Source: Candidatus Magasanikbacteria bacterium RIFCSPLOWO2_12_FULL_43_12
GTDB lineage: Bacteria; Patescibacteriota; Patescibacteriia; Magasanikbacterales; UBA922
Direction of reading: 5' to 3'
Length of the DNA stretch: 64,000 nucleotides
Assembly (NCBI GenBank): GCA_001783065.1
Contig: MFQN01000019.1
Coordinates: 309-64,308 of the forward strand
Each line of letters begins with the position of its first letter. The first letter of the stretch is position 1. The notes under the pieces are model-generated. The model did no database searches. It was given only the letters and a program-made list of their open reading frames with translations, and had not been told where the DNA came from. This document shows positions 1-52,882 of this stretch, one piece after another. A program made the position numbers and the translations under genes.

Positions 1-1
1 T

Positions 2-1381: not shown

Positions 1382-1385
1382 TTAT

Positions 1386-6625: not shown

Positions 6626-6637
6626 TTTTTTCTTTGT

Positions 6638-7360: not shown

Positions 7361-7363
7361 AAT

Positions 7364-9557: not shown

Positions 9558-9564
9558 TGTTTTT

Positions 9565-18061: not shown

Positions 18062-19274
18062 TTTTTCCGTCCAACAAACCATTCTGGATCTTAAAATTAC
18101 GATTTTACCGATAATCATTTTTGGCAGTGGAATTGTTGGAGAAGTATTGTTTAAAGCATGTGAAAATACCGGTATTAAAGTTACCGGTTTTTGTGATAAT
18201 AATATAAAAAAAACAAAAGATTCCAAGTGCGGAATCCCAGTGTTCTTTACGCCGGAATTAAAAAGTAAATATTCCGATGCCGTTGTTTTGATATCAGCCG
18301 CCGACATTCGAGACGCAATTACTCAATTGCAAAGTTTAAAATTTTATAAATGGGCCCCCTGCACTTTTTTATTGAGAGACTTCAATACATACCAGCACCA
18401 ATTCAGCGCGCCTGGAGATTTTGTCCAGTATGCTACCGATACTTGTATTCTATGTCATGATAGTTATTCACTTCCGGACAAACTTTTTTTAAGAAGCGTA
18501 GATATAGTGATAACGGAAAGATGTTCGCTTAAATGCAGGGATTGTTCTAATCTGATGTCGTATTATCAAAAACCGATGAACTGCGATTCGCAGGAATTAA
18601 TTAAAACCATAGATGCCTTTTGTAACATTGTAGATGAAGTTAATGAGTTTAGAGTATTAGGCGGTGAGCCGTTTATGAATCCAGAGTTTGATATAATTAT
18701 AGATAGACTGATGTCAGAACCCAAAGTTAAAAAAATAATCGTATATACAAATGGGACCATCGTTCCATCAGATGGAAAAATTCAATGTTTGAAGAGTAAA
18801 AAAACGCTTTTGATAATAACTGATTATGGGCCGGCGCTTTCTAAGAATCTGGGGATTTTGACAGAAAAACTGTTAAGCGAGGGGATTTCATATTTCGTGC
18901 AAAAGGCGGGTGGATGGACAGATTGTAATAAAATAGCGAGAAATTATAGGAATTCTTTTCAGCAAATGGAAATTTTTGACAATTGTTGCGCCAAAAATAC
19001 CATTACAATTTCGGAAGGGAAGCTGCACCGATGTCCTTTTGCCGCGAATGCCATGAGGCTGAGAGCGGTGCCTGATTTTAATGACGATTATGTGGAGTTT
19101 ATGCAAACACGAGATGATCATAGCGAAATAAAAAAGAAAATCAGGTCATTTTTATTTGATAAGAAATTTTTAGCGGTCTGCGATTATTGCAGAGGAAGGT
19201 CGTTTGGAGATGAAGAAATACCGTCAGCAATTCAGGCTGATAAATCATTAGACTATGAACGATATCAATACTAA
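18045..19274 (+). CDS. Radical SAM enzyme with N-terminal Methyltransf_14-like (NDP-sugar-binding-like) domain and C-terminal Cys-rich (SPASM/twitch-like) region
   Basis: It has a CX3CX2C motif (ERCSLKCRDC) and a GGEPF motif. The N-terminal ~100 aa (IIFGSGIVGEVLF...VVLISAAD) resemble the C-terminal domain of the adjacent C-methyltransferase. C-terminal cysteines are CCAKN...CPF...CDYCRG. Confidence 0.6.
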   Translation: MNLDDDFSVQQTILDLKITILPIIIFGSGIVGEVLFKACENTGIKVTGFCDNNIKKTKDSKCGIPVFFTPELKSKYSDAVVLISAADIRDAITQLQSLKFYKWAPCTFLLRDFNTYQHQFSAPGDFVQYATDTCILCHDSYSLPDKLFLRSVDIVITERCSLKCRDCSNLMSYYQKPMNCDSQELIKTIDAFCNIVDEVNEFRVLGGEPFMNPEFDIIIDRLMSEPKVKKIIVYTNGTIVPSDGKIQCLKSKKTLLIITDYGPALSKNLGILTEKLLSEGISYFVQKAGGWTDCNKIARNYRNSFQQMEIFDNCCAKNTITISEGKLHRCPFAANAMRLRAVPDFNDDYVEFMQTRDDHSEIKKKIRSFLFDKKFLAVCDYCRGRSFGDEEIPSAIQADKSLDYERYQY

Positions 19275-22200
19275 AAAACTGAATTATCTTTTAGTAATGC
19301 CGCGTCTAGTCCAAAATATTGGCGATGGCTATGTTTTTCCTCTTGGGGTGGCTTACGTTTCTTCAAGCATGAAAAAAGCGGGGTTTAATGTTTTCACATT
19401 AAATTTAAATCACAAAGAGGGCGATGTTTTTGAAATAATTAAAAAAACAATTGAAAAGAATAATATCCATGTTGTCGCGACCGGAGGCCTTTCGCCTCAA
19501 TATCATCTTGTTAAAAACGTTATTGAATCGGCAAAAAAAGTTAATAATAATATAATCACAATTGTGGGTGGCGGCATAATTACCGCCGATTGTGAAACCG
19601 CCATGAAGGCGCTGGAATTTGCAGATTATGGAGTCATCGGCGAAGGCGAAGAAACGATGTGTGAACTTTGCCGTATTTTAGAAAATAACGGAGACCTTTC
19701 AGTTTGCGACGGGCTTATTTATAAGGAAAGAGAGGGTTTTAAAGTTACAAATCCGCGCAAAGATATTGCTGATGTCAACGGTATTCCGTGGCCAGACTAC
19801 GAGGGTTTTGATACCGATAAATATCTTGAGGTTCCGCCGGCTGGATTTGCGGGATTAAATCAAAAACGAATGATCTGCATGCTGGGAAGCCGCTCCTGTC
19901 CTTTTCAATGCACTTTCTGCTGTCATACTCTCGGTAAAAAATATCGACGCCGATCTCTCGATGATTTTTTTGGCGAACTGGATTATTTAATTTCCCGCTA
20001 CAAAATTGATTATATTTCTTTAGCCGATGAGGTATTCGCCCCGGATTTTGAAAACGCGAAAAAATTCTGCGATCGAATAAAACAATACAATATTCATTGG
20101 TATGCCGATTTTAGAGTTGATTTGGTAAAGCCCGAACTCCTTCCTATTTTAAAGGAAAGCGGTCTTGATGTTATGTTTTTCGGTTTAGAAAGCGCGGACA
20201 ATAGGATTTTAAAAAGCATGCGCAAAGGCATTACCATTGAACAAACCGAAAGAGTTCTCAAGATGGTGTATGATGCCGGAATTGCCGGTTACGGTTGTTT
20301 TATATTCGGCGATATTGAAGAAACTTTTGAAACGGCTTTGAATACGCTTAACTGGTGGCGAGCGCACAAGGAATATGGCATCCATTTAACTCTTATTAAG
20401 CCGTTTCCCGGTTCATTTATTTACAGATACGCCTGCGAAAAAGGAATTATTAAAGATCCTATCCAATATCTCAAAGATGGCTGTCCCCAGGTGAATATTT
20501 CAAAGCTGAATAATGAGGAGTTCGCGGAAATTATGCGTCAGATTTCGGAGTCATCACACTTGTTGAGCAAGCCCGAATCTTTGGAATTGCTGGCCGTTGA
20601 TCCGGTGTTGGGGCGAGAGTCAGTGTCAGGGCGGTGCTCTAAGTGCAAGCAAAAGAATGTATGGGACGATATTAAATTATTCGCAAACGATTACATCACT
20701 TGCAGTCATTGCGGACAGAAATTTGATAATCCTAATCCGCCCCAATTAATTGAAAACCTTGATAAAAATCTCAGTTTGCTTTTAGCCAAACACGGCAAAG
20801 TAGCCGTATGGGGTATGACGCTGATAATAATGGAGTTATTCAGAAATTCAAAAATACTCAATAATCCGAATATTTTCGCGATAGACATTTCAGACAGCAA
20901 AAGAAAAATGAGTCTTGCCGGAAAAAAAATTTATGCTCCGGAAATTTTAGATAAAGAAAATATCCCTGTCGTGCTAATAGCGGTGCCGTCGCACGCCGGC
21001 CAGATTTCCTGTCAAATTAAAGAGAATCATATCAAAGTTACGGAAATAATCGATATCTGCAAGCTATGTGACTTCAATCCCATTATTCCTCAAAAATTAA
21101 ATTATCTTTTGGTAATGCCGAGGCTTGTCCAGAGAATCGGCGACGGCTATTCTTTCCCGCTCGGGATAACGTTTATTTCTTCCAGCATGAAGAAAGCCGG
21201 GTTGAATGTAAGAACGATCAATTTAAATCATTGCGAGGGAGACGTTTACGATATTTTAAAAAAAGAAATTGAAGAAAACAATATTGACGTAATCGGCGTC
21301 GGCGGTTTGTCATTTCAATATAACACGGTAAGGCTTGTTGTTGAATCCGCGAAAAAAATTAAAAAAGATATTATAACGATAGTCGGCGGAGGAATTATCA
21401 GCGGTGATCCGGAGCCGGCAATGAAAGCTTTGGAATACGCCGACTTCGGTGTAATTGGAGAGGGTGAGATGACAATGAACGAGCTTTGTTCTGCGTTGGA
21501 AGGCAAAAAAAACTTTACAGATATAGAGGGAATAATTTATAAAAATAGGGATTCTTATACCACAAATAATCCGCGTAAAGAAATGGCAAACATAGATACG
21601 CTTCCTTGGCCGGATTATGGCGGGTTTGAAATTCAAAAATATTTGGATTCTACCCCGCCGGGCATTAGTGGTTTGAACAGAAAAACGCTTTTTATGTTAG
21701 CGAGTCGTTCGTGTCCGTATAGTTGTACGTTTTGTTTTCATACGAATGGCAGAAGATATCGACAAAGATCACTTGATGATTTTTTTGCAGAACTTGAGTC
21801 CGTTGTCTCGCAGTATCAGATTGAATTTGTTTGTATGGCCGACGAGCTCTTCGCGCGCAACATAGAACGGGTTAAAGAATTTTGCGAGAAAATAAAAAAG
21901 TTTAATATTAAATGGTGGGCACAGTTCAGAGTTGATGATATTACTCTTGAGTTGCTTGCTGTCTTAAAGGCTGGCGGCTGCGAGGTTATGTCGTTCGGAT
22001 TGGAAAGCGCCGACAATCGCATTTTAAAAAGCATGAGAAAAGGCATCACCATAGAACAGATTGAGCGAACGCTAAGGATGGTTTATGAAGCGGGAATATC
22101 ATTTGAGGGTGCGTTCATATTCGGGGATATTGAGGAAACAGTGGAAACCGCCAATAATACTTTGAAATGGTGGCGGGAACACGCGGAATATAGAATTACC

Positions 22201-22926
22201 CTTAATTTGATTACGGTTTACCCGGGTTCTTATCTATATATGTACGGGAATGAAAAAGGAATCATAAAAGATAAAATTCAATTTTTAAAAGACGGATGCC
22301 CGCAGATAAATGTTTCAAAATTGTCGGATAAGGAATTATCCGAACTGGTAAGGCAATTGGTGGAGGCGCCGATAAGCATGACCAAACAGTTAATTTCGCC
22401 GGAACTTAAGACCGTGGATTTTCAAACCGGTAGAATCGCTCTTAGCGGGTCATGCGTAGTTTGCGATCACCGAAGCGAATGGAGCGACATTAGAATGTTT
22501 ACCATGAATTTTTTGCCGTGCAAAAAATGCGGACAGAAATATAATGTGCCGCTTTTTCCAGAGATTAGAAAAAATATTGATGACAATTTGCAAATGCTCT
22601 TGCGTAAATATGCCAAAGTAGCGGTGTGGGGCGTCAATTATCATTCATCCGACCTATTCAAAAATTCTTCCGTTCTGCACGATCCAAATATATATCCTGT
22701 TGATATTTCCCAGACGAAACGAAAGATGGATTTATACGAGAAAAAAATATTTGCTCCCGAAATTATAGATCGTGAAAATATCAAAGCTATTGTTGTCGCG
22801 GTGCCCGTTTACTACGCGCAGATCGCGTCTTTGGTGCAAACAAATCACAGGGGTGTCGTTGAAGTGATAGACATATGCGCTTTGACAAGCCGACAATACT
22901 CAAGTCAAGAAAGGATTGGTGTATGA
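19255..22926 (+). CDS. Tandem-fused double cobalamin-binding radical SAM enzyme (two complete B12-rSAM modules, each followed by a Zn-ribbon-like and a Methyltransf_14-like domain)
   Basis: Residues ~8-613 and ~614-1223 are full-length paralogs. Examples are KLNYLLVMPRLVQNIGDGYVFPLG vs KLNYLLVMPRLVQRIGDGYSFPLG, SRSCPFQCTFCCH vs SRSCPYSCTFCFH, and GLESADNRILKSMRKGITIEQ in both. Each half has a B12-binding Rossmann N-terminal domain, a CX3CX2C cluster, C..C......CSHCGQKF or C..C...CKKCGQKY pairs, and a C-terminal KVAVWG... domain. Confidence 0.8.
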   Translation: MNDINTKKLNYLLVMPRLVQNIGDGYVFPLGVAYVSSSMKKAGFNVFTLNLNHKEGDVFEIIKKTIEKNNIHVVATGGLSPQYHLVKNVIESAKKVNNNIITIVGGGIITADCETAMKALEFADYGVIGEGEETMCELCRILENNGDLSVCDGLIYKEREGFKVTNPRKDIADVNGIPWPDYEGFDTDKYLEVPPAGFAGLNQKRMICMLGSRSCPFQCTFCCHTLGKKYRRRSLDDFFGELDYLISRYKIDYISLADEVFAPDFENAKKFCDRIKQYNIHWYADFRVDLVKPELLPILKESGLDVMFFGLESADNRILKSMRKGITIEQTERVLKMVYDAGIAGYGCFIFGDIEETFETALNTLNWWRAHKEYGIHLTLIKPFPGSFIYRYACEKGIIKDPIQYLKDGCPQVNISKLNNEEFAEIMRQISESSHLLSKPESLELLAVDPVLGRESVSGRCSKCKQKNVWDDIKLFANDYITCSHCGQKFDNPNPPQLIENLDKNLSLLLAKHGKVAVWGMTLIIMELFRNSKILNNPNIFAIDISDSKRKMSLAGKKIYAPEILDKENIPVVLIAVPSHAGQISCQIKENHIKVTEIIDICKLCDFNPIIPQKLNYLLVMPRLVQRIGDGYSFPLGITFISSSMKKAGLNVRTINLNHCEGDVYDILKKEIEENNIDVIGVGGLSFQYNTVRLVVESAKKIKKDIITIVGGGIISGDPEPAMKALEYADFGVIGEGEMTMNELCSALEGKKNFTDIEGIIYKNRDSYTTNNPRKEMANIDTLPWPDYGGFEIQKYLDSTPPGISGLNRKTLFMLASRSCPYSCTFCFHTNGRRYRQRSLDDFFAELESVVSQYQIEFVCMADELFARNIERVKEFCEKIKKFNIKWWAQFRVDDITLELLAVLKAGGCEVMSFGLESADNRILKSMRKGITIEQIERTLRMVYEAGISFEGAFIFGDIEETVETANNTLKWWREHAEYRITLNLITVYPGSYLYMYGNEKGIIKDKIQFLKDGCPQINVSKLSDKELSELVRQLVEAPISMTKQLISPELKTVDFQTGRIALSGSCVVCDHRSEWSDIRMFTMNFLPCKKCGQKYNVPLFPEIRKNIDDNLQMLLRKYAKVAVWGVNYHSSDLFKNSSVLHDPNIYPVDISQTKRKMDLYEKKIFAPEIIDRENIKAIVVAVPVYYAQIASLVQTNHRGVVEVIDICALTSRQYSSQERIGV
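19276..21093 (+). repeat. Tandem intragenic duplication, unit 1 (~1.8 kb)
   Basis: The codon for K8 (19276) aligns with K614 (21094), offset 1818 nt. Nucleotide identity is ~70-75% in the stretches I compared by eye, and protein identity ~55-60%. Confidence 0.7.
21094..22923 (+). repeat. Tandem intragenic duplication, unit 2
   Basis: See unit 1. It is fused in frame with no stop codon between the units. Confidence 0.7.
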
Positions 22927-22981: not shown

Positions 22982-24130
22982 ATGACCAACACAGAAGAAT
23001 TAAAACCGATTGAAAGCGTAAAAAGGGACCAGCTCAAACGAGAAAAACCGTATGTTTATGAGAAGATCATGAAATATGATGGCAAGATTAAAAGAGGCGA
23101 AAGCATTGCCATCCTTCAATTTCAATATGACTATACCTGCAATTTTCTTTGCGAGCACTGTTGTATAACAAAATTAAGACGCAAATCGATTGGAGGGTGC
23201 GCGTTACCAACCAACACAACATCTACCGTTATAAAGCAAGGTGATAAGTCATTTACGCCAGACGATGTAAAGGAGCTTTGTAGGCAGGCGGACGAAATGG
23301 GGCTCGCACATTTTGTGATCACTGGAGGCGAGCCGTTAGTATTTACTGACTTTGATAAAATAGTTGAAGCGGTTGATCCGCAGAAATTTTACATTACTTC
23401 TGATACAAATGGTTGGTTTTTGGATGAAAAAAGAGCGAAGCATTTAAAAGACATAGGGGTTGATAAAGTTCAGATAAGCCTGGACAGTCTTTCCGCCGCG
23501 GAGCACGATAATTTTAGGAAACATGCCGGCGCGCATGAAAAAGTCCTTAGAGCCATTGACGCCGCCAAGAATGCCGGACTGAATGTTCTTGTCCAAACTG
23601 TTGTTACCAAGCAAAGAGTTAGATCGCAAGAATTTGAAGATTTTTTAAAATTTTTAAATAACGAAAAAGGCGTGCCGGTGTTTATAACCTACGCGAAGCC
23701 GGTGGGGGATTGGGAAGGAAATTTTGATGCCATGGTTAACCAAGAAGAGATGGATTATGTCAGAGAGTTGGAAAAGAAATATAATGTATTTACGCATTTA
23801 ACCCCGTCGTATGGGCTTGATCTCGGCTGTATCGCTGTTAAAAGAATGGTTTCCATTACAAAGTATGGAGATATAATGCCCTGCCCCTACATGCATGTTT
23901 CTCTCGGAAATTTTTTCAAGGAACCGTTAAAAGATATTTTTGAAAGAGGATTGAACACCAAGCAGTTCGGGCAGTATTATGAATCATGTTATATGGCTGA
24001 AGACAGGAAATTTATTGATAAGTATATCGCGGGAAGAGTATATGGCAAAAAGTTGCCGGTGCCTTACAACGAGGTGTTCACCGAAGAAGACTTTATTAAG
24101 CCAAGCGAGCGAAAACTTTATAAGGATTAA
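22982..24130 (+). CDS. Radical SAM enzyme (MoaA/SPASM-twitch-like)
   Basis: It has a CX3CX2C motif (CNFLCEHC) and ITGGEPLVF. C-terminal cysteines are CIAV...CPYMH. Confidence 0.7.
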   Translation: MTNTEELKPIESVKRDQLKREKPYVYEKIMKYDGKIKRGESIAILQFQYDYTCNFLCEHCCITKLRRKSIGGCALPTNTTSTVIKQGDKSFTPDDVKELCRQADEMGLAHFVITGGEPLVFTDFDKIVEAVDPQKFYITSDTNGWFLDEKRAKHLKDIGVDKVQISLDSLSAAEHDNFRKHAGAHEKVLRAIDAAKNAGLNVLVQTVVTKQRVRSQEFEDFLKFLNNEKGVPVFITYAKPVGDWEGNFDAMVNQEEMDYVRELEKKYNVFTHLTPSYGLDLGCIAVKRMVSITKYGDIMPCPYMHVSLGNFFKEPLKDIFERGLNTKQFGQYYESCYMAEDRKFIDKYIAGRVYGKKLPVPYNEVFTEEDFIKPSERKLYKD

Positions 24131-29320: not shown

Positions 29321-29791
29321 ATGTTAACCGCCATGGAACTAAAACAATTAGTGTCTTTACTGAAAAAGATAGATAACCCTCACGAGGGCATGCCCCAGCC
29401 AATTTTTGACGCTTTGTGCGGCGTGGTCGCGTTTGTCGCGTGTGAATTGGTGGTTGTGGATAAAAAGAGGGGTATCTTGCTAACCTGGCGCAATGACAGG
29501 TGGTGGCGCGGGTGGCACTTTCCTGGCGGGCTCCTACGCTATCGTGAAAGTTTTGATGAACGGATACAGGCAGTCGCGTGGAAAGAACTTGGTGTTAATG
29601 TAGAAGATTATAAACTTCTATTTACCAAAGATTGCAGCCAAGGCGCGCGCGGCCATGTTGTTTCTTTAGTTTTTCGCTGTGAAACGGCGATGAAGCCAAA
29701 ACACGGCAAATTTTTTAAAAAAATGCCGAAAAATATCATAGACGCGCACAAAGAATTTTGGATTAAATTTGAAAAATTATTGAATAATTAA
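29321..29791 (+). CDS. Nudix-fold hydrolase with non-canonical Nudix box, GDP-mannose mannosyl hydrolase (Gmm/NudD)-like
   Basis: WHFPGGLLRYRESFDERIQAVAWKELGV parallels the Gmm [28 protein letters not shown]. 156 aa (Gmm is ~159 aa). Confidence 0.55.
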   Translation: MLTAMELKQLVSLLKKIDNPHEGMPQPIFDALCGVVAFVACELVVVDKKRGILLTWRNDRWWRGWHFPGGLLRYRESFDERIQAVAWKELGVNVEDYKLLFTKDCSQGARGHVVSLVFRCETAMKPKHGKFFKKMPKNIIDAHKEFWIKFEKLLNN

Positions 29792-29795
29792 AAAT

Positions 29796-30737
29796 ATGCC
29801 GGAAAGAAAAAAAATAAGCGTTGTTACCGCTTGTTTCAACGAGGAAGAAAATGTTGATGCCGTCTATCGACAGGTTCAAGCTGTTTTCGCCGAGTTGCCA
29901 CAATATGACTACGAGCATTTATTTATTGATAACTGCTCCACAGACAAAACAGTCAGTATTCTAAAAAATATCGCCCAAGATGATAGGCGCGTAAAGATTA
30001 TAGTTAACGCCAGAAATTTTGGCCAAGTTAGAACTGGTTGTCATGCTATTGCGCAAGCACAAGGCGATGCAGTGGTAAATTTAGTCTGTGATTTGCAGGA
30101 CCCGCCGGTTTTAATCAAAGATTTCATAAAAAAATGGGAAGAAGGTTATAAGGTAGTCATCGGAATCAAAAATAAGAGCGCCGAAAATTCGGTAATGTTC
30201 ATGATAAGAAGGGTGTATTATAATCTTATTAAAAAAATTGCTGAAATAGAACAAATTAAAAATTTTACCGGCTTTGGCCTATATGATCGGATTATTATCA
30301 ATGCCTTAAAAAAATTTGATGATCCATACCCCTATCTTCGCGGTATGATTGCGGAAGTTGGATTTGAGCGAGCTGAAATCGAATATATTCAACCTGAAAG
30401 AGAAAAAGGAAGATCCAAAAATAATTTCTATTCCCTGTATGACATGGCGATGCTTGGTTTTGTGAATCACTCCAAGATCCCGTTGCGTCTGGCCAGCTTT
30501 ATCGGGTTTGGGATGTCAATTTTAAGTTTTATAGTTGCCATGATTTATTTAGTTTATAAGTTATTATATTGGCAGGAATTTGAACTCGGTTTGGCGCCTT
30601 TGATTATTGGAATATTTTTATTCGCTTCGGTGCAATTATTTTTTATCGGAATTTTAGGAGAATATATCGGGGCGATTTATACTCAAGTGAAACACCGTCC
30701 GCTTGTCATTGAAAAGGAGAGGATTAATTTTGATTGA
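29796..30737 (+). CDS. gtrB: Family 2 glycosyltransferase, GtrB-like bactoprenol-phosphate sugar transferase (two C-terminal TM helices)
   Basis: ISVVTACFNEEENV, DNCSTDKT and DLQDPP motifs are present. The C-terminal hydrophobic segments are LASFIGFGMSILSFIVAMIYL and LIIGIFLFASVQLFFIGILG. Confidence 0.7.
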   Translation: MPERKKISVVTACFNEEENVDAVYRQVQAVFAELPQYDYEHLFIDNCSTDKTVSILKNIAQDDRRVKIIVNARNFGQVRTGCHAIAQAQGDAVVNLVCDLQDPPVLIKDFIKKWEEGYKVVIGIKNKSAENSVMFMIRRVYYNLIKKIAEIEQIKNFTGFGLYDRIIINALKKFDDPYPYLRGMIAEVGFERAEIEYIQPEREKGRSKNNFYSLYDMAMLGFVNHSKIPLRLASFIGFGMSILSFIVAMIYLVYKLLYWQEFELGLAPLIIGIFLFASVQLFFIGILGEYIGAIYTQVKHRPLVIEKERINFD

Positions 30738-31120
30738 TTTCCGCCATGTTGGAAAAGTTGATAAAAAATCAATTTATCAGGTTTTTATTTGCCGGCGGGC
30801 TGAATACCGTATTTGGTTATGGTATTTTTTCTTTTTTTCTTTGGCTCGGCCTGCATTATTCTTTGGCGTCGTTGTTGAGCACTTTTTTTGGCATTTTATT
30901 TAATTTTAAAACTACCGGTATTATTGTGTTTAATTCCCGCAATAATTTGTTGATTTTAAAATTTTTTGGTGTTTATGGGGTGACGTATGTTTTGGGTGTG
31001 TTTATCATGTATCTGTTCAGTCTTTTGCATATCAGCGCCTATATTTCCGGAGCGATATTGATTTTACCGATGGCATGCGTGGCTTTTCTTCTAAATAAGC
31101 GTTTTGTCTTCAGGTCTTGA
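30734..31120 (+). CDS. gtrA: GtrA-family small membrane protein (putative lipid-linked sugar translocation component)
   Basis: 128 aa with 4 TM helices. FIRFLFAGGLNTVFGYGIF matches the GtrA-like family N-terminus. It overlaps gtrB by ATGA. Confidence 0.65.
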   Translation: MISAMLEKLIKNQFIRFLFAGGLNTVFGYGIFSFFLWLGLHYSLASLLSTFFGILFNFKTTGIIVFNSRNNLLILKFFGVYGVTYVLGVFIMYLFSLLHISAYISGAILILPMACVAFLLNKRFVFRS

Positions 31121-31146
31121 CATTCGTCTCATTAATGTGATATAAA
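31117..31146 (+). promoter_or_regulatory. Consensus sigma70 promoter (TTGACA-N18-TGaTATAAA) upstream of the GC-rich gene
   Basis: TTGACA at 31117-31122 overlaps the gtrA stop codon. The extended -10 is TGaTATAAA at 31138-31146. AAAGGAGG (31183-31190) follows, 6 nt before ATG 31197. Confidence 0.5.
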
Positions 31147-31196
31147 AGAGTGTCTTTTGGCTATGGTGGCCAAGAGCGAACAAAAGGAGGAAATAG

Positions 31197-31742
31197 ATGA
31201 CTACGGACGAAGCCGTTGCCGTTCTGTCGGGGCTGGACCCGCAGAGCGACGAGTTCAGGGGGGTTCTATCGCGCCTTTTGGGGCGCGTCGACCCCAAGAA
31301 GCCGTACGGCGCGACGTTGTTCGACGCCTTGGCGCGGCTCACGACGAGCGAGGCAGTGGAGGCGGTGCTTGTGCGCTGGGGTGCGGATAATCAACTGGAA
31401 GTCTACATGACCCAGCGCGGATCAGACGAGGCCTACCCAAATGAGTGGCACTTGCCAGGATCCATCTACCGTCCGGGCGAGGATACGGCGGATGTCATGG
31501 CGCGGCTGTCTCAGCGAGAATTTGGATGCAAGATCACCGGCTGGAGGCAGGTAGACCACTTTCGCCATGCGGAAGCTCGCGGCTGGTTCAGCGCTTTTGT
31601 CTTCATGCTGGAGGTGGAAGGCGAGCCGCGGAACGCACGCGGCGCATGGTACCTCGTTGACAACCTTCCGCCGAACACGGTCCGCCATCATGTGGAGCGT
31701 ATCATCCCAGCGGCCACTGCGGCCTTCTCCGGCCAGTCCTAG
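31197..31742 (+). CDS. GC-rich (~65% GC) divergent paralog of the 29321-29791 Gmm-like Nudix hydrolase
   Basis: FDAL...WHLPGS...REFG...ARGWFSAFVFMLE aligns collinearly with FDAL...WHFPGG...KELG...ARGHVVSLVFRCE of 29321-29791, with the same 54-55 aa spacing from WH to the conserved E. The gene has a perfect SD and ATG. Overlapping ORFs in other frames are GC artefacts. Confidence 0.55.
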   Translation: MTTDEAVAVLSGLDPQSDEFRGVLSRLLGRVDPKKPYGATLFDALARLTTSEAVEAVLVRWGADNQLEVYMTQRGSDEAYPNEWHLPGSIYRPGEDTADVMARLSQREFGCKITGWRQVDHFRHAEARGWFSAFVFMLEVEGEPRNARGAWYLVDNLPPNTVRHHVERIIPAATAAFSGQS

Positions 31743-31767
31743 GCCATCCACAATTTCCTACCAATCA

Positions 31768-31791
31768 GGGAGCGCGTCCAGCCGCGCTCCC
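31768..31791 (+). terminator. GC-rich hairpin (9-bp perfect stem GGGAGCGCG/CGCGCTCCC, 6-nt loop) immediately after the GC-rich gene
   Basis: A perfect inverted repeat lies 26 nt after the stop codon, followed by a weak T-tract (ATTTTGATT). Confidence 0.45.
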
Positions 31792-31812
31792 AATCCCTTC
31801 ATAATTTTGATT

Positions 31813-31833
31813 CCGCTTTTGGCGGTTTTTTTT
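31813..31833 (+). terminator. Short hairpin (CCGC-tttt-GGCGG) followed by T8 tract; candidate intrinsic terminator
   Basis: ccgcttttggcggtttttttt. The stem is short (4-5 bp) but the U-tract is strong. Confidence 0.4.
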
Positions 31834-31928
31834 GACTTTTTTTGAAAAGATGCTAAACTGTGAACATGGCGGGTTTTAGCGTCAGGCGGAAAATATGATT
31901 ATTTTTTGCTTCAATAACAATTTATTCT

Positions 31929-33233
31929 ATGGACAAAAATTTACAAGAGGCATTAGTGAATGAATATCGGAAAAGATTTCCACCCAAAGAATTTGTTCCC
32001 GGAGAATCACCGGTGCGGATATCCGGCACAGTTTCTGATGAGCAAGAAGTGCTGTTCGGAGTTGAGGCTGTGCTTGACAGCTGGTGGACAGAAGGAAGAT
32101 TTAGCGACGAGTTTGAAGAAAAGATGAATCATCTGCTGGGAGTAAAATACACCTCGTTGGTTAATTCCGGTTCTTCGGCTAATCTGGTGGCTTTGACTGC
32201 TTTGACATCTCCTAAACTTGGGGATAAAAGATTAAAAGAGGGCGATGAAGTGATAACCGTTGCCGCCGGCTTTCCAAGCACGGTTAATCCGATTATTCAA
32301 AACGGATTAGTGCCGGTTTTTGTTGATGTGGATTTGGGAACTTATAACATCAATATTGATGGATTAAAAAACGCCATCGGACCAAAAACTCGAGCGATAA
32401 TGATCGCGCATACTCTAGGCAATCCTTTCGCGCTTGATGTTATTATTGATATTTGCAAAAAAAATAATTTGTGGTTGGTAGAAGATAATTGCGACGCGCT
32501 TGGTTCAAAATATAATGGAAAATACACCGGCACCTTCGGCCATGTTTCCACCTGCAGTTTCTATCCGGCGCATCATATTACCATGGGCGAGGGCGGGGCG
32601 GTGTTTACGAGCGATAATTTGTTGAATGGAATAATCCGGTCGGTCCGCGATTGGGGCCGGGATTGCTATTGCAAAACCGGACATGATAATACTTGCGGAA
32701 TGAGATTTGGCTGGCAATTGGGGGATTTGCCGTTTGGTTATGACCACAAGTATATCTATTCTGAAATCGGGTATAATCTAAAGCTGACGGATATCCAGGC
32801 TGCTATCGGCGTGGCGCAGTTGGGCAAACTTGAAGGATTCATTAAAAAGAGAAAAGATAATTTCAAGTTTTTGTATGATTCTTTGAAAAAATACGAAGAA
32901 TATTTTATTTTGCCGAAATGGGAGGAAAAAGCCGAGCCAAGTTGGTTTGGATTTTTATTGACGGTGAGAGAGGAAGCGCCGTTTGGCCGCAATCAGATTG
33001 TCCAACACTTGCAAGAGAGTAATATCGCTACCAGATATTTATTTGCCGGCAATCTCGTTAAACAGCCGTATTTTATTGATAATCAAGTTAAGTATCGGGT
33101 AGTGGGAGATTTGGACAATACCGATAAAGTGATGAAAAATACTTTTTGGATTGGGTGCTACCCGGGTTTGACGGAAGAGATGTTGAGTTATGTAATTGAA
33201 AATTTTAATGATTTTTGTAAAAATTTTAAATAA
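31929..33233 (+). CDS. rfbH: CDP-6-deoxy-D-xylo-4-hexulose 3-dehydrase-like (RfbH/DdhC/E1 family; PMP-dependent DegT-fold enzyme with His in place of the Schiff-base Lys)
   Basis: LVNSGSSANLVALTALTSPKLGDKRLKEGDEVITVAAGFPSTVNPIIQNGLVPVFVDVDLGTYNI matches the conserved E1 core. CSFYPAHHITMGEGG has His where aminotransferases have Lys. 434 aa (E1 is ~437 aa). Confidence 0.7.
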   Translation: MDKNLQEALVNEYRKRFPPKEFVPGESPVRISGTVSDEQEVLFGVEAVLDSWWTEGRFSDEFEEKMNHLLGVKYTSLVNSGSSANLVALTALTSPKLGDKRLKEGDEVITVAAGFPSTVNPIIQNGLVPVFVDVDLGTYNINIDGLKNAIGPKTRAIMIAHTLGNPFALDVIIDICKKNNLWLVEDNCDALGSKYNGKYTGTFGHVSTCSFYPAHHITMGEGGAVFTSDNLLNGIIRSVRDWGRDCYCKTGHDNTCGMRFGWQLGDLPFGYDHKYIYSEIGYNLKLTDIQAAIGVAQLGKLEGFIKKRKDNFKFLYDSLKKYEEYFILPKWEEKAEPSWFGFLLTVREEAPFGRNQIVQHLQESNIATRYLFAGNLVKQPYFIDNQVKYRVVGDLDNTDKVMKNTFWIGCYPGLTEEMLSYVIENFNDFCKNFK

Positions 33234-33235
33234 GC

Positions 33236-35002
33236 ATGTTGACTAAAGAGAAATTAATATCCGCCGTAAAAAATTATTATTTAGTTATCATATTTTCCAT
33301 TATTGTTGGCTTGCTTTCGTTATCCCAACAGTTTCTAGCCATTAGCGCTCTTGGAAAATCCTACAACGGAGTTCCGATGTTTAATGCTGCTAATATGGAT
33401 TTTTATTTAACCAGAGTGAGGGATCTGATGGATGGCCACGGTTTGGTTAGTTCCGCCTTTTATTTTGAATATAAGAATAATTTTCCGGTAATATTTCCAA
33501 CCAATGAACATTTATATGCCTTAATCGGCCGCATCATTGGCTTATCCACCACAGAAATAATACTCTTGAATCAATTTTTATTTCCCGCTTTTTTATTTTT
33601 ACTGATTTATTTTTTGGTCATCAAATTAACTGATGGCCATACTACTGCGGGCCGTCTCAATGCGGTGGGAACAGGTTTGTTGGTCATATTTGGTTATGAA
33701 TTTACGGATATAAAATTTTCTTGGCTTGTGTTAAGCGGCCAACTGCCTTATTTACATGGCCTATTATGGAATAGGCCCGTTAATCCAATTATTGGAGTGA
33801 TGCTATTATTTCTATTGTTGTTAATTTTATGGCAAATAGTTAATAAAAAAGGCCGTTATTGGTCTTTGTTCGCAGGAGTTATTATCGCGCTGGGAGTGGG
33901 ATATTATTTCACATTGATCATGTCACTTTCTATTGCTGGTGTTCTGGCGTTAATTTATTTTTTAAAAAAGGAATACTCTATCTCATTCAATTTATTTCTT
34001 GCCATCATCTTTAGTTTCTTTTTTTCTTCGCCGTATTGGTATATGGTGATAAGAGCGTTGGTTGAGAGTAAGGGAGGAGTAGTTGGTATATTCGGCGGGG
34101 TTTTTACCCGTCAGTTGGTTTTTAATAAAGTGTTATTAGCCGGTAGCGCCATATTTTTTTTCTGTTTTATAAAAGAATATTTACAACAAAAAAAAATTGC
34201 TGGGAAAATTGATTCGTGGTGGTTTTTTTGTCTAGCTTTTTTTATCGGAGGTCTGGCAGCGTTTAATATTCAGGTTATTACCGGTATCAACATCTCGCAT
34301 CCTCACTTTGTGCAATTTACGATTCCTTTAACCCTCGTTGCGTTAATGGTGCTTAGCTTTAATTTTTTGCGTCCGCGTTTTTCCAAAATTTGGTATGTTG
34401 TGTTAATAGCGGTTTTTGCATCCACTCTGTTTTTTGGTGTTCAAACCGCGCGTTCCTATGTGTTGGGACTAAGCTATTTTTCAGAAACTCAAAAATTTAA
34501 CGAGATGTTTAAGTGGATTGACATTAATACGCCAAAAGATTGCGTTATTTTTGTGGCCGAAAGAGAAGACGATACGATTTCTAGGCTACTTACTGGGTTA
34601 ACTCACTGTAATATTTATTACATATCAAGGGGGGCCAGCGCGGAAGCCACGGCGGAGAGAAATTACCACAATTTTTTATCGTTTTTGAGGATGAATGAAG
34701 TGCAACCAGCGGAAGTTGAGAATTATCTTAAGAATCATTTTTTGCTGGTAAGTCTTAATTTCTTTAAAAACTGGGATCAATTATTTAGTCCAGGATACCA
34801 GCAATGGATGGCTGAGCCGGTCAGACGGGTAGCGGAAGATTATCCCGTATTTTTTAAAAAAGATTTCTCCACTGAGTTAAGGCGGTACAAAATTGATTAT
34901 CTTTTGTCGCCTAAGGAATTGTCAGAGTCGCTTCTAAAAACACTGCCTTCAATAAAACTACTTCATCAGGCCGGGGGACTCCACCTTTATCGGTTTGAGT
35001 GA
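33236..35002 (+). CDS. Large polytopic membrane protein (about 12-14 TM) with C-terminal soluble domain; GtrC/GT-C-like glycosyltransferase or polymerase candidate
   Basis: Hydrophobicity pattern only. It follows gtrBA and rfbH. Its 3' end overlaps the convergent gene by 45 bp. Confidence 0.4.
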   Translation: MLTKEKLISAVKNYYLVIIFSIIVGLLSLSQQFLAISALGKSYNGVPMFNAANMDFYLTRVRDLMDGHGLVSSAFYFEYKNNFPVIFPTNEHLYALIGRIIGLSTTEIILLNQFLFPAFLFLLIYFLVIKLTDGHTTAGRLNAVGTGLLVIFGYEFTDIKFSWLVLSGQLPYLHGLLWNRPVNPIIGVMLLFLLLLILWQIVNKKGRYWSLFAGVIIALGVGYYFTLIMSLSIAGVLALIYFLKKEYSISFNLFLAIIFSFFFSSPYWYMVIRALVESKGGVVGIFGGVFTRQLVFNKVLLAGSAIFFFCFIKEYLQQKKIAGKIDSWWFFCLAFFIGGLAAFNIQVITGINISHPHFVQFTIPLTLVALMVLSFNFLRPRFSKIWYVVLIAVFASTLFFGVQTARSYVLGLSYFSETQKFNEMFKWIDINTPKDCVIFVAEREDDTISRLLTGLTHCNIYYISRGASAEATAERNYHNFLSFLRMNEVQPAEVENYLKNHFLLVSLNFFKNWDQLFSPGYQQWMAEPVRRVAEDYPVFFKKDFSTELRRYKIDYLLSPKELSESLLKTLPSIKLLHQAGGLHLYRFE

Positions 35003-36364
35003 TGATAGTTTTGTATTTTCTTGTCGGCCAATCGCATAGAAAGCAAATGTCGCGATAAAAATATTTATCGGCGCGCGGTAGCGCGCTGTTACTCCCAAAC
35101 CGACAACGGCGGAAGTTATGGTGAAATAAAAAATTATGAGAAAAGTGAACGATATTTTGTTTTGCAATCTTTCGCGTTTAAGGTATTTTATGATACCAAG
35201 CGCGGCGAAAAGCGTCATTAGAATCCAAAATATGCGCCCGGCTATAACAATAATTGCCGGGCCTCTTATTAGTCCGCCAATTATACTTAGGGCAATTCTT
35301 GGTGATTGAATTATTTTAAAAACAGGAATGGCCGGCAGGTTGGCGTCTAATCCTAAATCCCCAAGAATATCACGATACCCATCCTGGGTAAATAACGAAA
35401 CGACAGTTAAGACGATAACTTTGGTCGTGTCATATGGAGGCATTTTTTTAAGAATCTCTATTGATCGTTGTGTAAAATGATTGGCGGTCTTTAGGTCAAT
35501 TATCGTCAGGTCAGATATTTTTTCTTCAGCAAAGAATTTATTTTTTGCTTCATTGTAACTAATATTATTTTTAAGCGCCAGTATTGATGGTATGAAATAG
35601 CCATATAGATTATTGGCTGAAGTAGCCGCGAGAGCGGGACTTCCGAATAAACGGGAATTTCGGTAAAGCCACGGAGAAAGCATCATAACAAAAATCACCA
35701 AGAATCCAAGCATACGCCAAAAGACGCGAATGGTAATTTTTTTTCTAAAAATCCAGATAATTAAGGCAACAATAATTACCGGTAGATATTGCGTTATCGG
35801 CCGAGTCAGAGTCGTGAGTCCTAAAAGGACAGCACTCACAGCAAGATAAGAAAATTTTTCATTTTTTAAATAATTATAGAAAGCTAAAAGAAAACCGAAG
35901 AAAAGCGTTAAAAATAATGTTTCTGTTAAGAGCACGCTGGTGAGCCTGATCAACAGTGGTTCAATCGCAAAAAAAATACCGACGCCGATAGCTATTTTTT
36001 CATTGTTCATTATGTGGTAGCTTATTCTCTTAGCCAGCAACGCCAAAATACTCCCCATGATAATTTGGGAGATGATGACCGCCAAATCTGACCCGAATAG
36101 CTTGAAATTGGCGGCTATAAATAGGGGATAAAGCGGCGTGCGCCACGAATCCGGCGTGTATGGCTCTGTAGTCGCTCCAGAAAACCCGTGGCCGGAAAGG
36201 ATATTGTGGGCTATTTCGTAATAACTTTCTGATTTCCAAATGGTGCCAAGGAGACTGTTGTCGTGCGTCGCCATGTTAATCCAAAAATAACCAACCCGCA
36301 GTATAATCGCCAGCGCGACAATCGCTATTTCGATTTTTTGATTTCTTGAAAATTTAATGCCCAT
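34958..36364 (-). CDS. Polytopic membrane glycosyltransferase, PMT_2 / ArnT-like
   Basis: SESYYEIAHNILSGHGFS...RTPLYPLFIAANFKLFG is the PMT_2 signature loop. It is a paralog of 11608-13005. Confidence 0.6.
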   Translation of the reverse strand: MGIKFSRNQKIEIAIVALAIILRVGYFWINMATHDNSLLGTIWKSESYYEIAHNILSGHGFSGATTEPYTPDSWRTPLYPLFIAANFKLFGSDLAVIISQIIMGSILALLAKRISYHIMNNEKIAIGVGIFFAIEPLLIRLTSVLLTETLFLTLFFGFLLAFYNYLKNEKFSYLAVSAVLLGLTTLTRPITQYLPVIIVALIIWIFRKKITIRVFWRMLGFLVIFVMMLSPWLYRNSRLFGSPALAATSANNLYGYFIPSILALKNNISYNEAKNKFFAEEKISDLTIIDLKTANHFTQRSIEILKKMPPYDTTKVIVLTVVSLFTQDGYRDILGDLGLDANLPAIPVFKIIQSPRIALSIIGGLIRGPAIIVIAGRIFWILMTLFAALGIIKYLKRERLQNKISFTFLIIFYFTITSAVVGLGVTARYRAPINIFIATFAFYAIGRQENTKLSSLKPIKVESPGLMK

Positions 36365-37454
36365 CGAAAAATTTATTGATGTGTCTGCAAACAGTTATCA
36401 CGTCTTCGTCTGCCATAGTAAAAGAAGAAGGTAGCCAAAAAGAGAGAGGTGATATTTTTGTACTGCTTGCAAACCGTTCGTCTGGCATTTTAAAAGCGGT
36501 CTGTCGGTGAATTGGCAGCCAAAATTCACGGCATTCAATATTCTGGGATAGCAAATAGTTAATGAGGGTGTCGCGTTTTTCTGTCCAGGCGTCAATCCAA
36601 AGCGGGAGTTCGCCTTCCGCGATATTAAAAGGAAACAGATTAACGGTGTTTGGTTTCAAATTTTCTTTGTACAATTTATAGGCGCGTTTTATCCGATCCA
36701 TCCTGAACGCAACTTTATTTAGCTGTCCCAAGCCAACAGCGGCTTGTAAATTGGTGTATTTGAAATTATAACCAATACTTTGATGGATATCGTCTCCCCC
36801 GGTTCCTTTTACCGGCCGCCCATGGTCTTTTAATTTAACCAGTTCTTCAAAAAGTGCGTCATCATCAGTAACAATTATGCCTCCTTGCCCTGTAGAGACC
36901 ATTTTAAAGGGCGACAAAGAGTAACAGCCGGCCTTTCCTATGGTACCCAAATACCGACCGTTCTGTTTGGACATGAACGCCGCAGCCGCGTCTTCTACTA
37001 CCAACAAGTTATGTTTCTTCGCAAGTTCTAAAATTTTAACCATGTCTGCCCCGCGGCCGCTCACATGCACAGGCACAATTGCCTTTGTTTTGGTAGTTAC
37101 CGATCGTTCGGCCGCCTCTATATCTATAGTCAGGGTTTGTGGATTAACATCTACGAGAACAACATTAGCGCCAGTCAGCTCCACTGCGTGGGCCGTAGCG
37201 ATAAACGTCATGTTTGGCACCAGGACTTCATCTCCGGTTCCTACTCTAAGCCCCTTGAGAGCCAAAAATATGCCCATTGTGCAACTGGTTACTGCCAATG
37301 CGTGTTTGGCGTTTACCATCGTTGCCCAACGTTCTTCAAACTGATCAGTTACATTTCCATCATTTAAGTAATTTTCTGTTAATACTTTCAAAACTAAATT
37401 TTTTTCCTCCTCGTCAACCATCGGTTGATACCAAGGGATTTTGCAATTAGCCAT
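36354..37454 (-). CDS. DegT/DnrJ/EryC1/StrS-family PLP-dependent sugar aminotransferase
   Basis: KIPWYQPMVDEEEKN N-terminus and LSPFKMVSTGQGG with the Schiff-base Lys. The ORF is open to 37502; ATG at 37454 (MANCKIP) is chosen by family N-terminus pattern. Confidence 0.8.
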   Translation of the reverse strand: MANCKIPWYQPMVDEEEKNLVLKVLTENYLNDGNVTDQFEERWATMVNAKHALAVTSCTMGIFLALKGLRVGTGDEVLVPNMTFIATAHAVELTGANVVLVDVNPQTLTIDIEAAERSVTTKTKAIVPVHVSGRGADMVKILELAKKHNLLVVEDAAAAFMSKQNGRYLGTIGKAGCYSLSPFKMVSTGQGGIIVTDDDALFEELVKLKDHGRPVKGTGGDDIHQSIGYNFKYTNLQAAVGLGQLNKVAFRMDRIKRAYKLYKENLKPNTVNLFPFNIAEGELPLWIDAWTEKRDTLINYLLSQNIECREFWLPIHRQTAFKMPDERFASSTKISPLSFWLPSSFTMADEDVITVCRHINKFFDGH

Positions 37455-37561
37455 AATTAATTTGCTTATAGCGAATCTTACACCCCCTTGCCAAGGGCGC
37501 AAAGTTTAGTTATAATTAATGTTATTATAAGTTAAGCACAGAAAACTGTCAATTTGAGGGG

Positions 37562-51892: not shown

Positions 51893-52882
51893 ATGTCTCT
51901 TGATTTTTTGGGCGGTAAAACAATTTTAATCACCGGCGGCACCGGTTCATTTGGTCAGCGATGCGTTCGCATACTTTTGGGACAAAGCGCGGCCGCTAGA
52001 ATCGTGATTTTTAGTCGCGATGAGTTAAAACAATCGCAAATGCAAACTGAAATTTCAGACCCGGACGGACGGCTGCGTTTTTTTATCGGCGATATCCGCG
52101 ATGTAGATAGGTTGATTATGGCTTTGCAAGGCGTTGACTATGTTATTCATGCCGCGGCGCTTAAACAAGTGCCGGCTCTGGAATATAATCCGTTTGAGGC
52201 GGTTAAAACCAATATTATAGGCACGCAGAATGTGATTATGGCGGCGTTAAAGAATAATGTTGAAAAAATGGTTTTGGTATCTACTGATAAGGCCGCTAAT
52301 CCAGCCAATCTTTACGGAGCCACTAAATTATGCGCTGAGCGTTTGATGACCAGCGCCAATGCCTATTCAGGCAAGGGCGGGACAAAGTTTGGCGCTGTGC
52401 GTTACGGTAATGTTCTTGGCAGTCGCGGCAGTATTATTAAAATTATTGAACAACAGCGCGCTACCGGGGAGATTACTTTGACCCACGAAGATATGACACG
52501 ATTTTGGATTACGCTTGACCAGGGGGTGGAGGTAGTGATGATGGCGCTTGAAAAAATGTATGGCGGAGAAGTTTTTGTTCCCAAGTTGCCAAGCATGAAG
52601 ATTAAAGATTTTATCAGTTTATTAGCGCCGGATAGTAAAATAAAAATTGTCGGTATCAGGCCTGGAGAAAAACTGCACGAGGCATTGGTTACGCTGGAGG
52701 AGGCAAGGCACACGAAAGAATTTTCTAATCATTATGTCATTATGCCAGAGCACGATTGGTGGTTGGGTCATGATGTCTATGGTAGCGGCGTAAAAGTGGA
52801 AGAAGGATTTTATTTCGCTAGCCATAATAACGAGCAGTGGTTAGACGAAGAAGGAATGAAAAAATTACTCACTACTCTATGA
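51893..52882 (+). CDS. pseB: UDP-N-acetylglucosamine 4,6-dehydratase (inverting), PseB/FlaA1 family
   Basis: ILITGGTGSFGQRCVRILL and YGATKLCAE (YxxxK) are present. 329 aa, Polysacc_synt_2 type. Confidence 0.85.
   Translation: MSLDFLGGKTILITGGTGSFGQRCVRILLGQSAAARIVIFSRDELKQSQMQTEISDPDGRLRFFIGDIRDVDRLIMALQGVDYVIHAAALKQVPALEYNPFEAVKTNIIGTQNVIMAALKNNVEKMVLVSTDKAANPANLYGATKLCAERLMTSANAYSGKGGTKFGAVRYGNVLGSRGSIIKIIEQQRATGEITLTHEDMTRFWITLDQGVEVVMMALEKMYGGEVFVPKLPSMKIKDFISLLAPDSKIKIVGIRPGEKLHEALVTLEEARHTKEFSNHYVIMPEHDWWLGHDVYGSGVKVEEGFYFASHNNEQWLDEEGMKKLLTTL

Follow-up and report, generated by a model that had tools for sequence, protein, structure and literature searches.

The window analyzed here is a stretch of 64,000 nucleotides (nt) from contig MFQN01000019.1 of Candidatus Magasanikbacteria bacterium RIFCSPLOWO2_12_FULL_43_12, an uncultured groundwater bacterium with a content of guanine plus cytosine (GC) of ~41%. 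The whole window is a very large, mostly co-directional gene cluster for glycan and nonulosonic-acid biosynthesis. Within this cluster, between a gtrA-like gene and a gene for a DegT/RfbH-like enzyme, lies a compact cassette that consists of a single GC-rich open reading frame (ORF), 31197-31742, with a predicted NUDIX-fold product, and of the predicted expression signals on both sides of this ORF. Here we describe the cassette and the NUDIX subfamily to which it belongs, and consider why members of this subfamily are so often richer in GC than the genes around them; all results are computational.

In the following, L-numbers denote individual loci and P-numbers representative proteins; L010 and L011 contain diverged copies of the cassette. 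The features of the cassette and the genes next to it are:

29321-29791 (+), NUDIX paralog ("type B"), embedded in the operon, of host composition (GC 0.43; GC at third codon positions, GC3, 0.46); Pfam NUDIX match
29796-31120 (+), gtrB-like gene of the GT2 family (29796-30737) and gtrA-like gene (30734-31120), immediately 5' of the cassette; Pfam matches (GtrA_DPMS_TM for the gtrA-like gene)
31117-31146 (+), cassette promoter, read directly: -35 hexamer TTGACA (31117-31122), 18-nt spacer, extended -10 element TG-n-TATAAA (31138-31146)
31154-31176 (+), leader stem-loop (CUUUUGGC...GCCAAGAG), then AGCGAAC; minimum free energy -12.4 kcal/mol, z -2.6
31186-31190 (+), Shine-Dalgarno sequence GGAGG, 6 nt ahead of the ATG, read directly; kept in L010 and L011
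31197-31742 (+), GC-rich NUDIX-fold gene of 181 codons, "type A" family member; identified by GC, Pfam, the family hidden Markov model (HMM), the ratio of nonsynonymous to synonymous divergence (dN/dS) and AF2/Foldseek
31768-31791 (+), perfect 9-bp GC hairpin GGGAGCGCG-TCCAGC-CGCGCTCCC in the 3' untranslated region (UTR); 0 expected by chance
31813-31833 (+), predicted intrinsic terminator CCGC-TTTTG-GCGG (CCGCTTTTGGCGG) plus T8; kept in L010 and L011
31832-31859 (+), outward promoter-like site TTGACT-16-TAAACT with TG, found by scan, facing the DegT/RfbH-like gene
31929-33233 (+), gene for a DegT/RfbH-like pyridoxal phosphate enzyme, immediately 3' of the cassette; Pfam DegT_DnrJ_EryC1, E 5e-93

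Along the window, GC climbs from ~0.33-0.40 to 0.60-0.66 over positions 31200-31800. The ORF itself has a GC of 0.628 (GC1 0.66, GC2 0.47, GC3 0.75), compared with 0.409 +/- 0.031 (GC3 0.411 +/- 0.041, range 0.32-0.49) for the 56 other ORFs, such that it is an outlier by ~7-8 standard deviations and the sole such island in 64 kb; outside the island, the highest 300-bp stretch reaches 0.533 GC. A first-pass annotation, made from the letters alone, had pointed to a GC jump over exactly this ORF, to its foreign composition and to overlapping spurious ORFs in the alternative frames, and the windowed GC, the per-ORF GC and GC3 values, and the frames themselves bear out all three. The near-consensus AT-rich promoter and Shine-Dalgarno sequence at the boundaries of the coding sequence, and the two hairpins 3' of the stop codon, the second with T8, which the same annotation had reported, are likewise present.

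The -35 hexamer of the cassette promoter, which is of the sigma-70 type, overlaps the stop codon TGA of gtrA (31118-31120). This promoter is missing from the list produced by our promoter scan because the scan demands a T at position 6 of the -10 hexamer; equivalent upstream promoters, TTGACA-N17-TATAAT/TATGAT, precede the L010 and L011 copies. Close to their 5' end, leaders of the sub-clade that includes the window carry a stem-loop of the type CUUUU+variable / variable+GAAAG, followed by AGCRAAC, and in single-sequence folds similar hairpins with different stem sequences appear in the leaders of L082, L085, L047, L045, L077 and L084. RNAalifold applied to a MAFFT alignment of leaders gave no consensus pairs, the stems being out of register in that alignment. 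Downstream of the ORF, the 9-bp GC hairpin is near-invariant in L010/L011 although ~53% of synonymous sites differ, and the 3' untranslated part is altogether better kept than synonymous sites (proportion of synonymous differences, pS, ~0.53). The GC-rich stem-loop at 31813-31825 stands directly 5' of T8, the arrangement expected of an intrinsic terminator. At the right end of the L010/L011 cassettes, there is a homologous outward site, TTGACA...TGATAAAGT / GGATACAGT, with a different gene downstream; in the window, this site is a candidate promoter, suitably positioned for restarting transcription of the DegT/RfbH-like gene. The -35 hexamer TTGAC[AT] is repeated at both cassette ends, and nothing else is.

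Judged by these predicted signals, the cassette is a natural, autonomous single-gene transcription unit that extends from promoter to terminator and carries an outward promoter in addition. Given that upstream transcription would be ended and a new promoter supplied to the next gene, the cassette should be non-polar wherever it lands, which would make it a natural counterpart of a "non-polar" cassette design. The 9-bp GC hairpin occurs once in 64 kb, which rules out a dispersed repeat (a repetitive extragenic palindrome or a miniature inverted-repeat transposable element), and an RNA gene or riboswitch is ruled out by the lack of any Rfam match at the gathering score and of any tRNA in the whole window. 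In the L085, L047, L039 and L045 copies, the terminator hairpins are long and have in common an ACGCYCYGC-type 5' arm, and an internal AAGTCCAACNTGGA segment is common to the 3' UTRs of the L085 and L047 family genes, which suggests that these copies conserve a 3' element with more to it than a generic terminator.

The NUDIX subfamily and its GC excess

A word-indexed search retrieved five relatives only. An exhaustive profile search yielded 1,035 representative proteins at E<=1e-3, including 119 at E<=1e-30, with the family signature LFxALARLT...EAV...TQR...AYPGxWHCPGS..RPGE...DV..RL..REFG...E.RGHF...G.WF.V..LP..TV.HHR..IIP. A GTDB scan with the 5-sequence alignment gave no match; with a degenerate DNA pattern for Y-P-x-x-W-H-x-P-G-x3-R-x-x-E, 77 stretches were retrieved from GTDB genomes, and a profile scan of JGI metagenomes contributed 15 further loci. 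The HMM-confirmed set consists of 69 members at 62 distinct loci. A pattern search of IMG/VR gave 0 matches, by which we rule out a phage origin. We found nothing in the literature on this NUDIX subfamily or on single-gene GC islands of such kind.

Family genes recur within a module that consists of a thiamine pyrophosphate (TPP) enzyme, one further gene, GtrB, in some cases GtrA, one to three NUDIX genes and DegT (L062, L077, L053, L064); in L062, the family gene is directly behind gtrA, as in the window. Most of the metagenome-assembled genomes (MAGs) with family members are labelled Staskawicz-, Parcu-, Magasanik- or Saccharibacteria or Patescibacteria, and some are labelled Gammaproteobacteria, Bdellovibrionales or Udaeobacter. 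We distrust these latter labels because the same gene module is present there. The MAGs of "uncultured Gammaproteobacteria" with L045, L053, L077, L039 and L047 share the TPP-GtrB-NUDIX-DegT module with L062 and L064, labelled Parcubacteria/Patescibacteria, and their GtrB and DegT proteins are 61-69% identical to those of the window; L085, labelled Udaeobacter, is a locus of 36% GC. At two loci, a further GC-rich gene adjoins the family gene: in L077, a gene for a HAD-like hydrolase (3054-3668, minus strand; GC 0.55, host 0.39), which is oriented divergently to the GC-rich NUDIX gene, and in L078, a gene of unknown function for a 328-aa protein (4842-5828, minus strand; +0.19 GC).

The GC excess is a feature of the family at large. 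The 63 members in hosts below 47% GC exceed the rest of their loci by +0.116 GC on average, with 65% reaching +0.10, compared with -0.004 +/- 0.035 for 589 non-family ORFs of the same loci, of which 0.5% reach +0.10; at all 15 metagenome loci, the excess is between +0.08 and +0.26. For GC3 alone, the family mean is +0.145 over same-locus ORFs, and 46% of members are at +0.15 or above, versus 0.8% of 356 controls (Mann-Whitney p = 2e-11). Given that the excess is there at third positions alone, it is not an effect of amino-acid composition, and we discard an artefact of that kind. The shift affects every codon class, G- and C-ending codons alike, including AGR to CGN and TTR to CTN replacements, and extends to the amino-acid usage of the GC-rich copies (Arg 7.7% vs 3.7%, Lys 4.1% vs 8.8%, Ile 4.2% vs 8.7%). 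With all codon classes and the amino acids shifted, the pressure is a general one, at the nucleotide level, and translational codon selection is ruled out.

In the family tree, GC-rich members are found on many deep branches, with host-matched ones in between. Between tandem paralogs, composition can contrast strongly, much as it does in the GC-rich and host-like pair of the window, for example, GC 0.62 and 0.38 in L077 (3800-4429 and 4539-5168) and 0.47, 0.54 and 0.39 for the side-by-side paralogs of L064 (12-2035); the family genes of L053 (1860-3707) are in tandem as well. Two MAGs of ~60% GC hold several copies of native composition (L015, L060, L061, L065). Taken together, these observations suggest that the family has been rich in GC for a long time, rather than still showing the vestige of a single recent import.

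We then compared composition with the presence of expression signals, scoring as a promoter TTGA[CT][AT]-N16-18-TAnn[AT]T within 140 nt upstream and as a terminator a hairpin with a T-run within 120 nt:

GC-island members (n = 37): promoter 27, terminator 25, both 21
Host-matched members in AT-rich hosts (n = 18): promoter 4, terminator 10, both 4
Control ORFs (n = 404): promoter 9%, terminator 26%, both 6%

A promoter thus precedes 27 of the 37 island members (73%) and 4 of the 18 host-matched ones (22%; Fisher p = 5e-4), so that GC excess and a private promoter and terminator tend to occur together. At these loci, there are only five stand-alone genes from outside the family, and these are not GC-rich (mean +0.011 GC).

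Relocation, divergence and persistence of the GC excess

The identical cassette protein is found in at least 21 contigs, which come from different samples and from ENA, JGI and Logan assemblies. In the nine loci that we examined, gene order is as in the window and identity to it is at least 99.9%; they represent one population in independent assemblies. Diverged copies are at 69% (P0002, L010) and 65% (P0003, L011 and L012) protein identity; dN/dS against L010/L011 is 0.25-0.27, third-position differences dominate, and the indels are multiples of three. To judge from this substitution pattern, the protein encoded by ORF 31197-31742 is under purifying selection. Sharp composition boundaries and textbook expression signals are what one might see in a chimeric join or an engineered insert, and the first-pass annotation had left room for both. 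With the same DNA in independent assemblies and naturally diverged copies at hand, we reject chimerism and engineering alike: the junctions are the same in assemblies from several studies and assemblers, the natural 65-69% homologs share the architecture and differ by in-frame indels, and there are dozens of analogous islands in unrelated MAGs. The probability that we would still assign to such an artefact is negligible.

In L010/L011, promoter, leader, terminators and outward promoter have all been kept together with the ORF and so are part of the cassette. The flanks are different: in L010/L011, the cassette sits between AsnB-like and PMT_2-like genes. Synteny with L010 extends over about 8 kb of the window (1-1372 and 4610-12900), with 70-82% nt identity, and the orthologous site in the window has no insert:

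1379-1388 (+), empty insertion site of the L010/L011 type: end of the AsnB-like gene at 1381, start of the PMT_2-like gene at 1386, the orthologs being 4 nt apart

In L010/L011, the same two orthologs (AsnB at ~80% nt identity) are ~830 nt apart, with the cassette inside, such that, by alignment of the flanks, the cassette is at different chromosomal sites in related genomes. The closest GTDB relative of the window, L045, shows another kind of movement. The neighbors are 70-84% identical to those of the window and the type B NUDIX gene 80%, but the GC-rich copy is only 48% identical to the window cassette and belongs to another clade, which indicates that alleles have been swapped between related hosts. 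A "recent acquisition re-fitted with local signals", another option of the first-pass annotation, is therefore too simple, with the signals conserved along with the ORF in L010/L011 and the GC excess family-wide. Its suggestion of an unusually fast-diverging region is right only in part, namely, in that GC-rich copies outpace their neighbors in divergence (54-67% vs 72-82% identity). Host-matched copies diverge similarly or more slowly (L028/L033, 90% vs 70%), and copies in GC-rich hosts diverge to the same extent as their neighbors (82% vs 81%).

The time depth of the GC excess can be gauged from the turnover between strong (G, C; S) and weak (A, T; W) base pairs. In the window clade, synonymous divergence (dS) of the cassette from L010 is 0.92, as low as that of the least diverged syntenic host genes (range 0.92-2.1), and S/W turnover (kt) is 0.78 for the cassette and 1.23 for host genes. 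Neutral decay from a GC3 of 1.0 over the host kt would leave 0.73, and 0.73-0.80 is observed; hence, the copies are either younger than the host split, through lateral movement, or their GC is maintained. Lateral movement fits the differing insertion sites of this clade. In two other pairs, the gene lies between or beside orthologous neighbors. In L097/L102, it is on the opposite strand between the same neighbors (54-66% identical); the hosts show saturation at synonymous S/W sites and a GC3 of 0.30-0.34, and the family genes, 56% identical and near saturation at their own synonymous S/W sites, have a GC3 of 0.54 and 0.59. In L024/L080, the gene is divergent beside a 78%-identical neighbor; host kt is ~2 and host GC3 0.26-0.31, and the family GC3 is 0.54 and 0.56 against a neutral-decay bound of 0.53. 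Since the excess outlasts saturation in both pairs, the higher GC would be an equilibrium, barring repeated replacement of the gene at its site.

From these observations, we tentatively propose that the gene family, specifically in the form of an autonomous cassette, keeps a private base-composition equilibrium in AT-rich genomes, with GC3 15-35 points above that of every neighbor past synonymous saturation; this could well be so, with the balance in our assessment tilted somewhat to the negative. If true, it implies a gene-specific, GC-favoring force at the scale of a single 0.6-kb transcription unit, which would be either localized GC-biased conversion tied to cassette exchange or selection for GC-rich mRNA. 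As the cause of the GC-richness, we lean toward GC-biased conversion combined with recombination that repeatedly exchanges or replaces the cassette, although we would put the chances of this reading slightly below even. Under it, the cassette would be exchanged laterally or relocated as a plug-and-play unit, partly drawing on GC-rich lineages with native copies; exchange and biased conversion would then hold the private, higher GC equilibrium and also speed protein divergence. Such a process would explain together the mobility, the across-the-board W-to-S pressure, the faster protein change and the persistence. GC-biased gene conversion (gBGC) has been set out as a hypothesis for bacteria, with recombination-associated GC3 shifts reported (PMC4450053).

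Several points count against this reading. The persistence rests on two syntenic pairs that are not mutual nearest neighbors in the family tree, so that repeated allelic replacement at the same site is possible for L097/L102 and L024/L080. For the window clade, a three-taxon two-state likelihood does not discriminate (delta lnL, the difference in log likelihood, <=1) between neutral decay with a root GC3 of ~0.93 and stationarity at a GC3 of ~0.75. No recombinase, integrase or att-like site is seen in the 64 kb; two islands take in a second GC-rich gene, which looks like ordinary island import; the taxon labels of the MAGs are inconsistent; and the biochemical role that we suggest below is derived from fold and gene context. 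We know of no bacterial precedent for GC-biased conversion of such size (+0.15 to +0.35 GC3), and published recombination-associated GC3 shifts in bacteria are reportedly much smaller. As candidates for the cause of the GC excess, we consider three: gBGC with exchange, selection on the mRNA and serial imports.

Under selection on the transcript, the strong promoter, 5' hairpin, strong Shine-Dalgarno sequence and two 3' hairpins of the cassette would serve to make an unusually stable or abundant monocistronic mRNA, and a GC-rich body, devoid of AU-rich RNase sites or spurious internal AT-rich signals, would be favored in AT-rich hosts because it raises the mRNA level. Such selection would account for the tight coupling of GC excess to transcriptional autonomy, for the 5' and 3' hairpins that are kept across hosts and for the excess that outlasts synonymous saturation in syntenic orthologs; selection in favor of GC-rich gene versions has reportedly been examined by experiment (PMC4478552). 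Folding of native sequences relative to synonymous shuffles points in the same direction in 7 of 8 genes, with negative z, but the effect is weak: apart from a single -4.4, values mostly range from -0.2 to -1.4. GC-rich copies change faster at the protein level than their neighbors, whereas highly expressed genes usually behave in the opposite way; the shift is of equal strength in amino acids and in codons, a pattern that resembles mutation or conversion pressure; the other stand-alone genes at these loci, five in number, lack a GC excess; and we see no reason why one family alone should need such an mRNA. All told, we regard selection on the transcript as unlikely. Serial import, in which each GC-rich copy would have come separately and fairly recently from GC-rich lineages and be incompletely ameliorated, the window copy being among the youngest, appears to us a shade more improbable. 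Potential donors exist, in that the copies of the ~60% GC MAGs, which are of the Parcubacteria type (L015, L060, L061, L065), are native, with L025 (+0.18) as their sister; the excess forms a continuum from 0 to +0.26; the decay model fits the window clade, with a root GC3 of 0.93 and a cassette kt of 0.78, below the host kt of 1.23; insertion sites differ and some islands comprise two genes (L077, L078); and transfers among Patescibacteria are reported as common (PMC12455944). However, the AT-rich promoter, leader and terminator move along with the ORF, so that the transferred unit must already have resided in AT-rich genomes. Of the 69 members, only 6, from two genomes, have GC-rich hosts, whereas islands make up 65% of the members from AT-rich hosts and are scattered across deep branches, and L097/L102 and L024/L080 keep a GC3 of 0.54-0.59, above the neutral-decay bound even from an ancestral GC3 of 1.0.

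Protein and gene neighborhood

Both NUDIX proteins of the window match Pfam NUDIX (PF00293), the cassette protein with 23.0 bits against a cutoff of 21.1 (E 8.9e-5) and its neighbor with 35.8 bits (E 1e-8). They are collinear, with 24% identity over 146 aa in BLASTP (E 5e-10), so the relation between the two proteins that had been noticed by eye stands, as does the observation of family members of contrasting composition (GC3 0.75 vs 0.46) on either side of gtrBA. With the family HMM, the cassette protein scores 226 bits and the product of 29321-29791 scores 74 bits, as a distant member. The label "Gmm/NudD-like", which had been attached to the neighbor, finds no support as a statement of membership: against the Gmm/NudD model NF011963, the neighbor reaches 17.1 bits at a cutoff of 146, and the cassette protein has no hit at E<=1. 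NCBIfam otherwise returned generic MutT-like matches far below cutoffs, and the best matches of a sequence search of PDB are generic MutT-like proteins as well (E 1e-4 to 1e-5).

The AF2 model is of moderate confidence (pLDDT 70.6) and has 440 Foldseek matches in PDB at E<=1e-3; all 50 of the matches listed are Nudix-domain structures, with NrtR and AraR at the top, followed by NudC. In this model, the cassette protein has the predicted alpha/beta/alpha Nudix fold. Its Nudix box reads S89-x5-E95-x7-R103-L104-S-Q-R107-E108-F-G110-C and thus departs from the canonical GX5EX7REUXEEXGU with three metal-binding glutamates, RE being replaced by RL and EE by [R/C]E. E108 does not vary either in the 5-sequence alignment or among 40 members; L104 is likewise invariant in the former and reaches at least 90% conservation in the latter. 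The fold, the degenerate box and the gene context point to a putative binder or hydrolase of the nucleotide-sugar that feeds the GtrB-type polyprenyl-phosphate glycosyltransferase. A type B copy of host composition adjoins the GC-rich type A copy in L045, L095 and L098, gtrBA being located between the two in the window. Several family proteins of 374-413 aa (P0006, P0007, P0009, P0015 and P0019) have two domains in tandem, usually with one strong and one weaker match. Such fusions hint at paralog heterodimers and, together with the adjacent type A and B copies, suggest that the paralogs act together; the cassette protein may pair with its operonic paralog and in this manner tune the supply of NDP-sugar.

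The start of the DegT/RfbH-like gene differs among public calls, 31929 (434 aa) or 31956 (425 aa), and either start leaves a leader of ~70-100 nt behind the outward promoter-like site at 31832-31859. The gene that follows (33236-35002) encodes a polytopic membrane protein of 588 aa that has no Pfam match, is kept in every copy of the locus and might be a GT-C-type glycosyltransferase or polymerase that acts on the GtrB product. The cluster further holds two NeuB-family genes, several B12-binding radical-SAM genes, KpsC/S-like genes, an ABC exporter gene, HisH/HisF-like amidotransferase genes (56901-58286), PMT_2/GT-C glycosyltransferase genes and five DegT-family genes (31929-33233, 36354-37502 on the minus strand, 48808-50121, 52837-53982 and a truncated call at 31956). 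A 1,223-aa ORF (19255-22926) contains two successive modules of B12-binding and radical-SAM domains, an apparent tandem fusion, and is followed by a radical-SAM/SPASM gene (22982-24130). There are no housekeeping, integrase, transposase or recombinase genes among the genes of the window, and we therefore rule out an integron, a transposon or another integrase-borne unit.

Comparison with known systems

What is new here is a compositional island as a family trait tied to the autonomy of a cassette, in an uncharacterized NUDIX subfamily. This subfamily is large and linked to GtrB/GtrA/DegT glycan modification in bacteria of the candidate phyla radiation type. Composition-based island finders assume that deviation means recent transfer, and the cassette family would run counter to that assumption. 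Whether biased conversion or selection shapes bacterial GC is a long-standing open question, and here AT-rich and GC-rich paralogs are side by side; if our findings are upheld, the family would be a compact natural system in which to ask what holds local GC off the genomic equilibrium, biased conversion or selection.

Among characterized proteins, Gmm/NudD/WcaH resembles the cassette protein in being a small Nudix-fold protein from a glycan cluster whose box lacks some of the catalytic glutamates, and the R-L-x-x-x-E-x-G of the cassette protein is, we presume, similar to the Gmm box. Unlike Gmm, the cassette subfamily has an N-terminal helical extension (LFxALARLT) and a C-terminal TVxHH and gives no NF011963 signal. 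The non-catalytic sensors NrtR and Bacteroides AraR, also with a degenerate box, are the top structural matches (3gz8 and 5bs6; Foldseek E ~1e-7, TM-score 0.5-0.6), but the cassette protein, at 181 aa and 17-20% identity, is devoid of their winged-helix DNA-binding domain.

As a genetic element, the cassette is like an ameliorating genomic island in its deviant composition, differing positions and swapped alleles. It differs from typical islands in that it is usually a single gene, has no mobility genes, tRNA target or direct repeats and carries host-type signals that are conserved along with it; moreover, the deviation across the family is always toward GC and persists past synonymous saturation in syntenic orthologs. 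Integron gene cassettes are likewise compact single-ORF units that occur in different contexts, but the cassette described here has its own promoter and an outward promoter, its hairpin is unique in the window and there is no integrase in the 64 kb; no attC-like core was recognized by eye in the 3' region, no formal attC search having been made. Bacterial gBGC (PMC4450053) would produce W-to-S pressure on all codon classes and amino acids together with faster protein change, as seen in the cassette family, and the cassette is a unit that evidently recombines or relocates; in contrast to the gBGC that has been described, which is genome-wide, the effect here is confined to ~0.6 kb.

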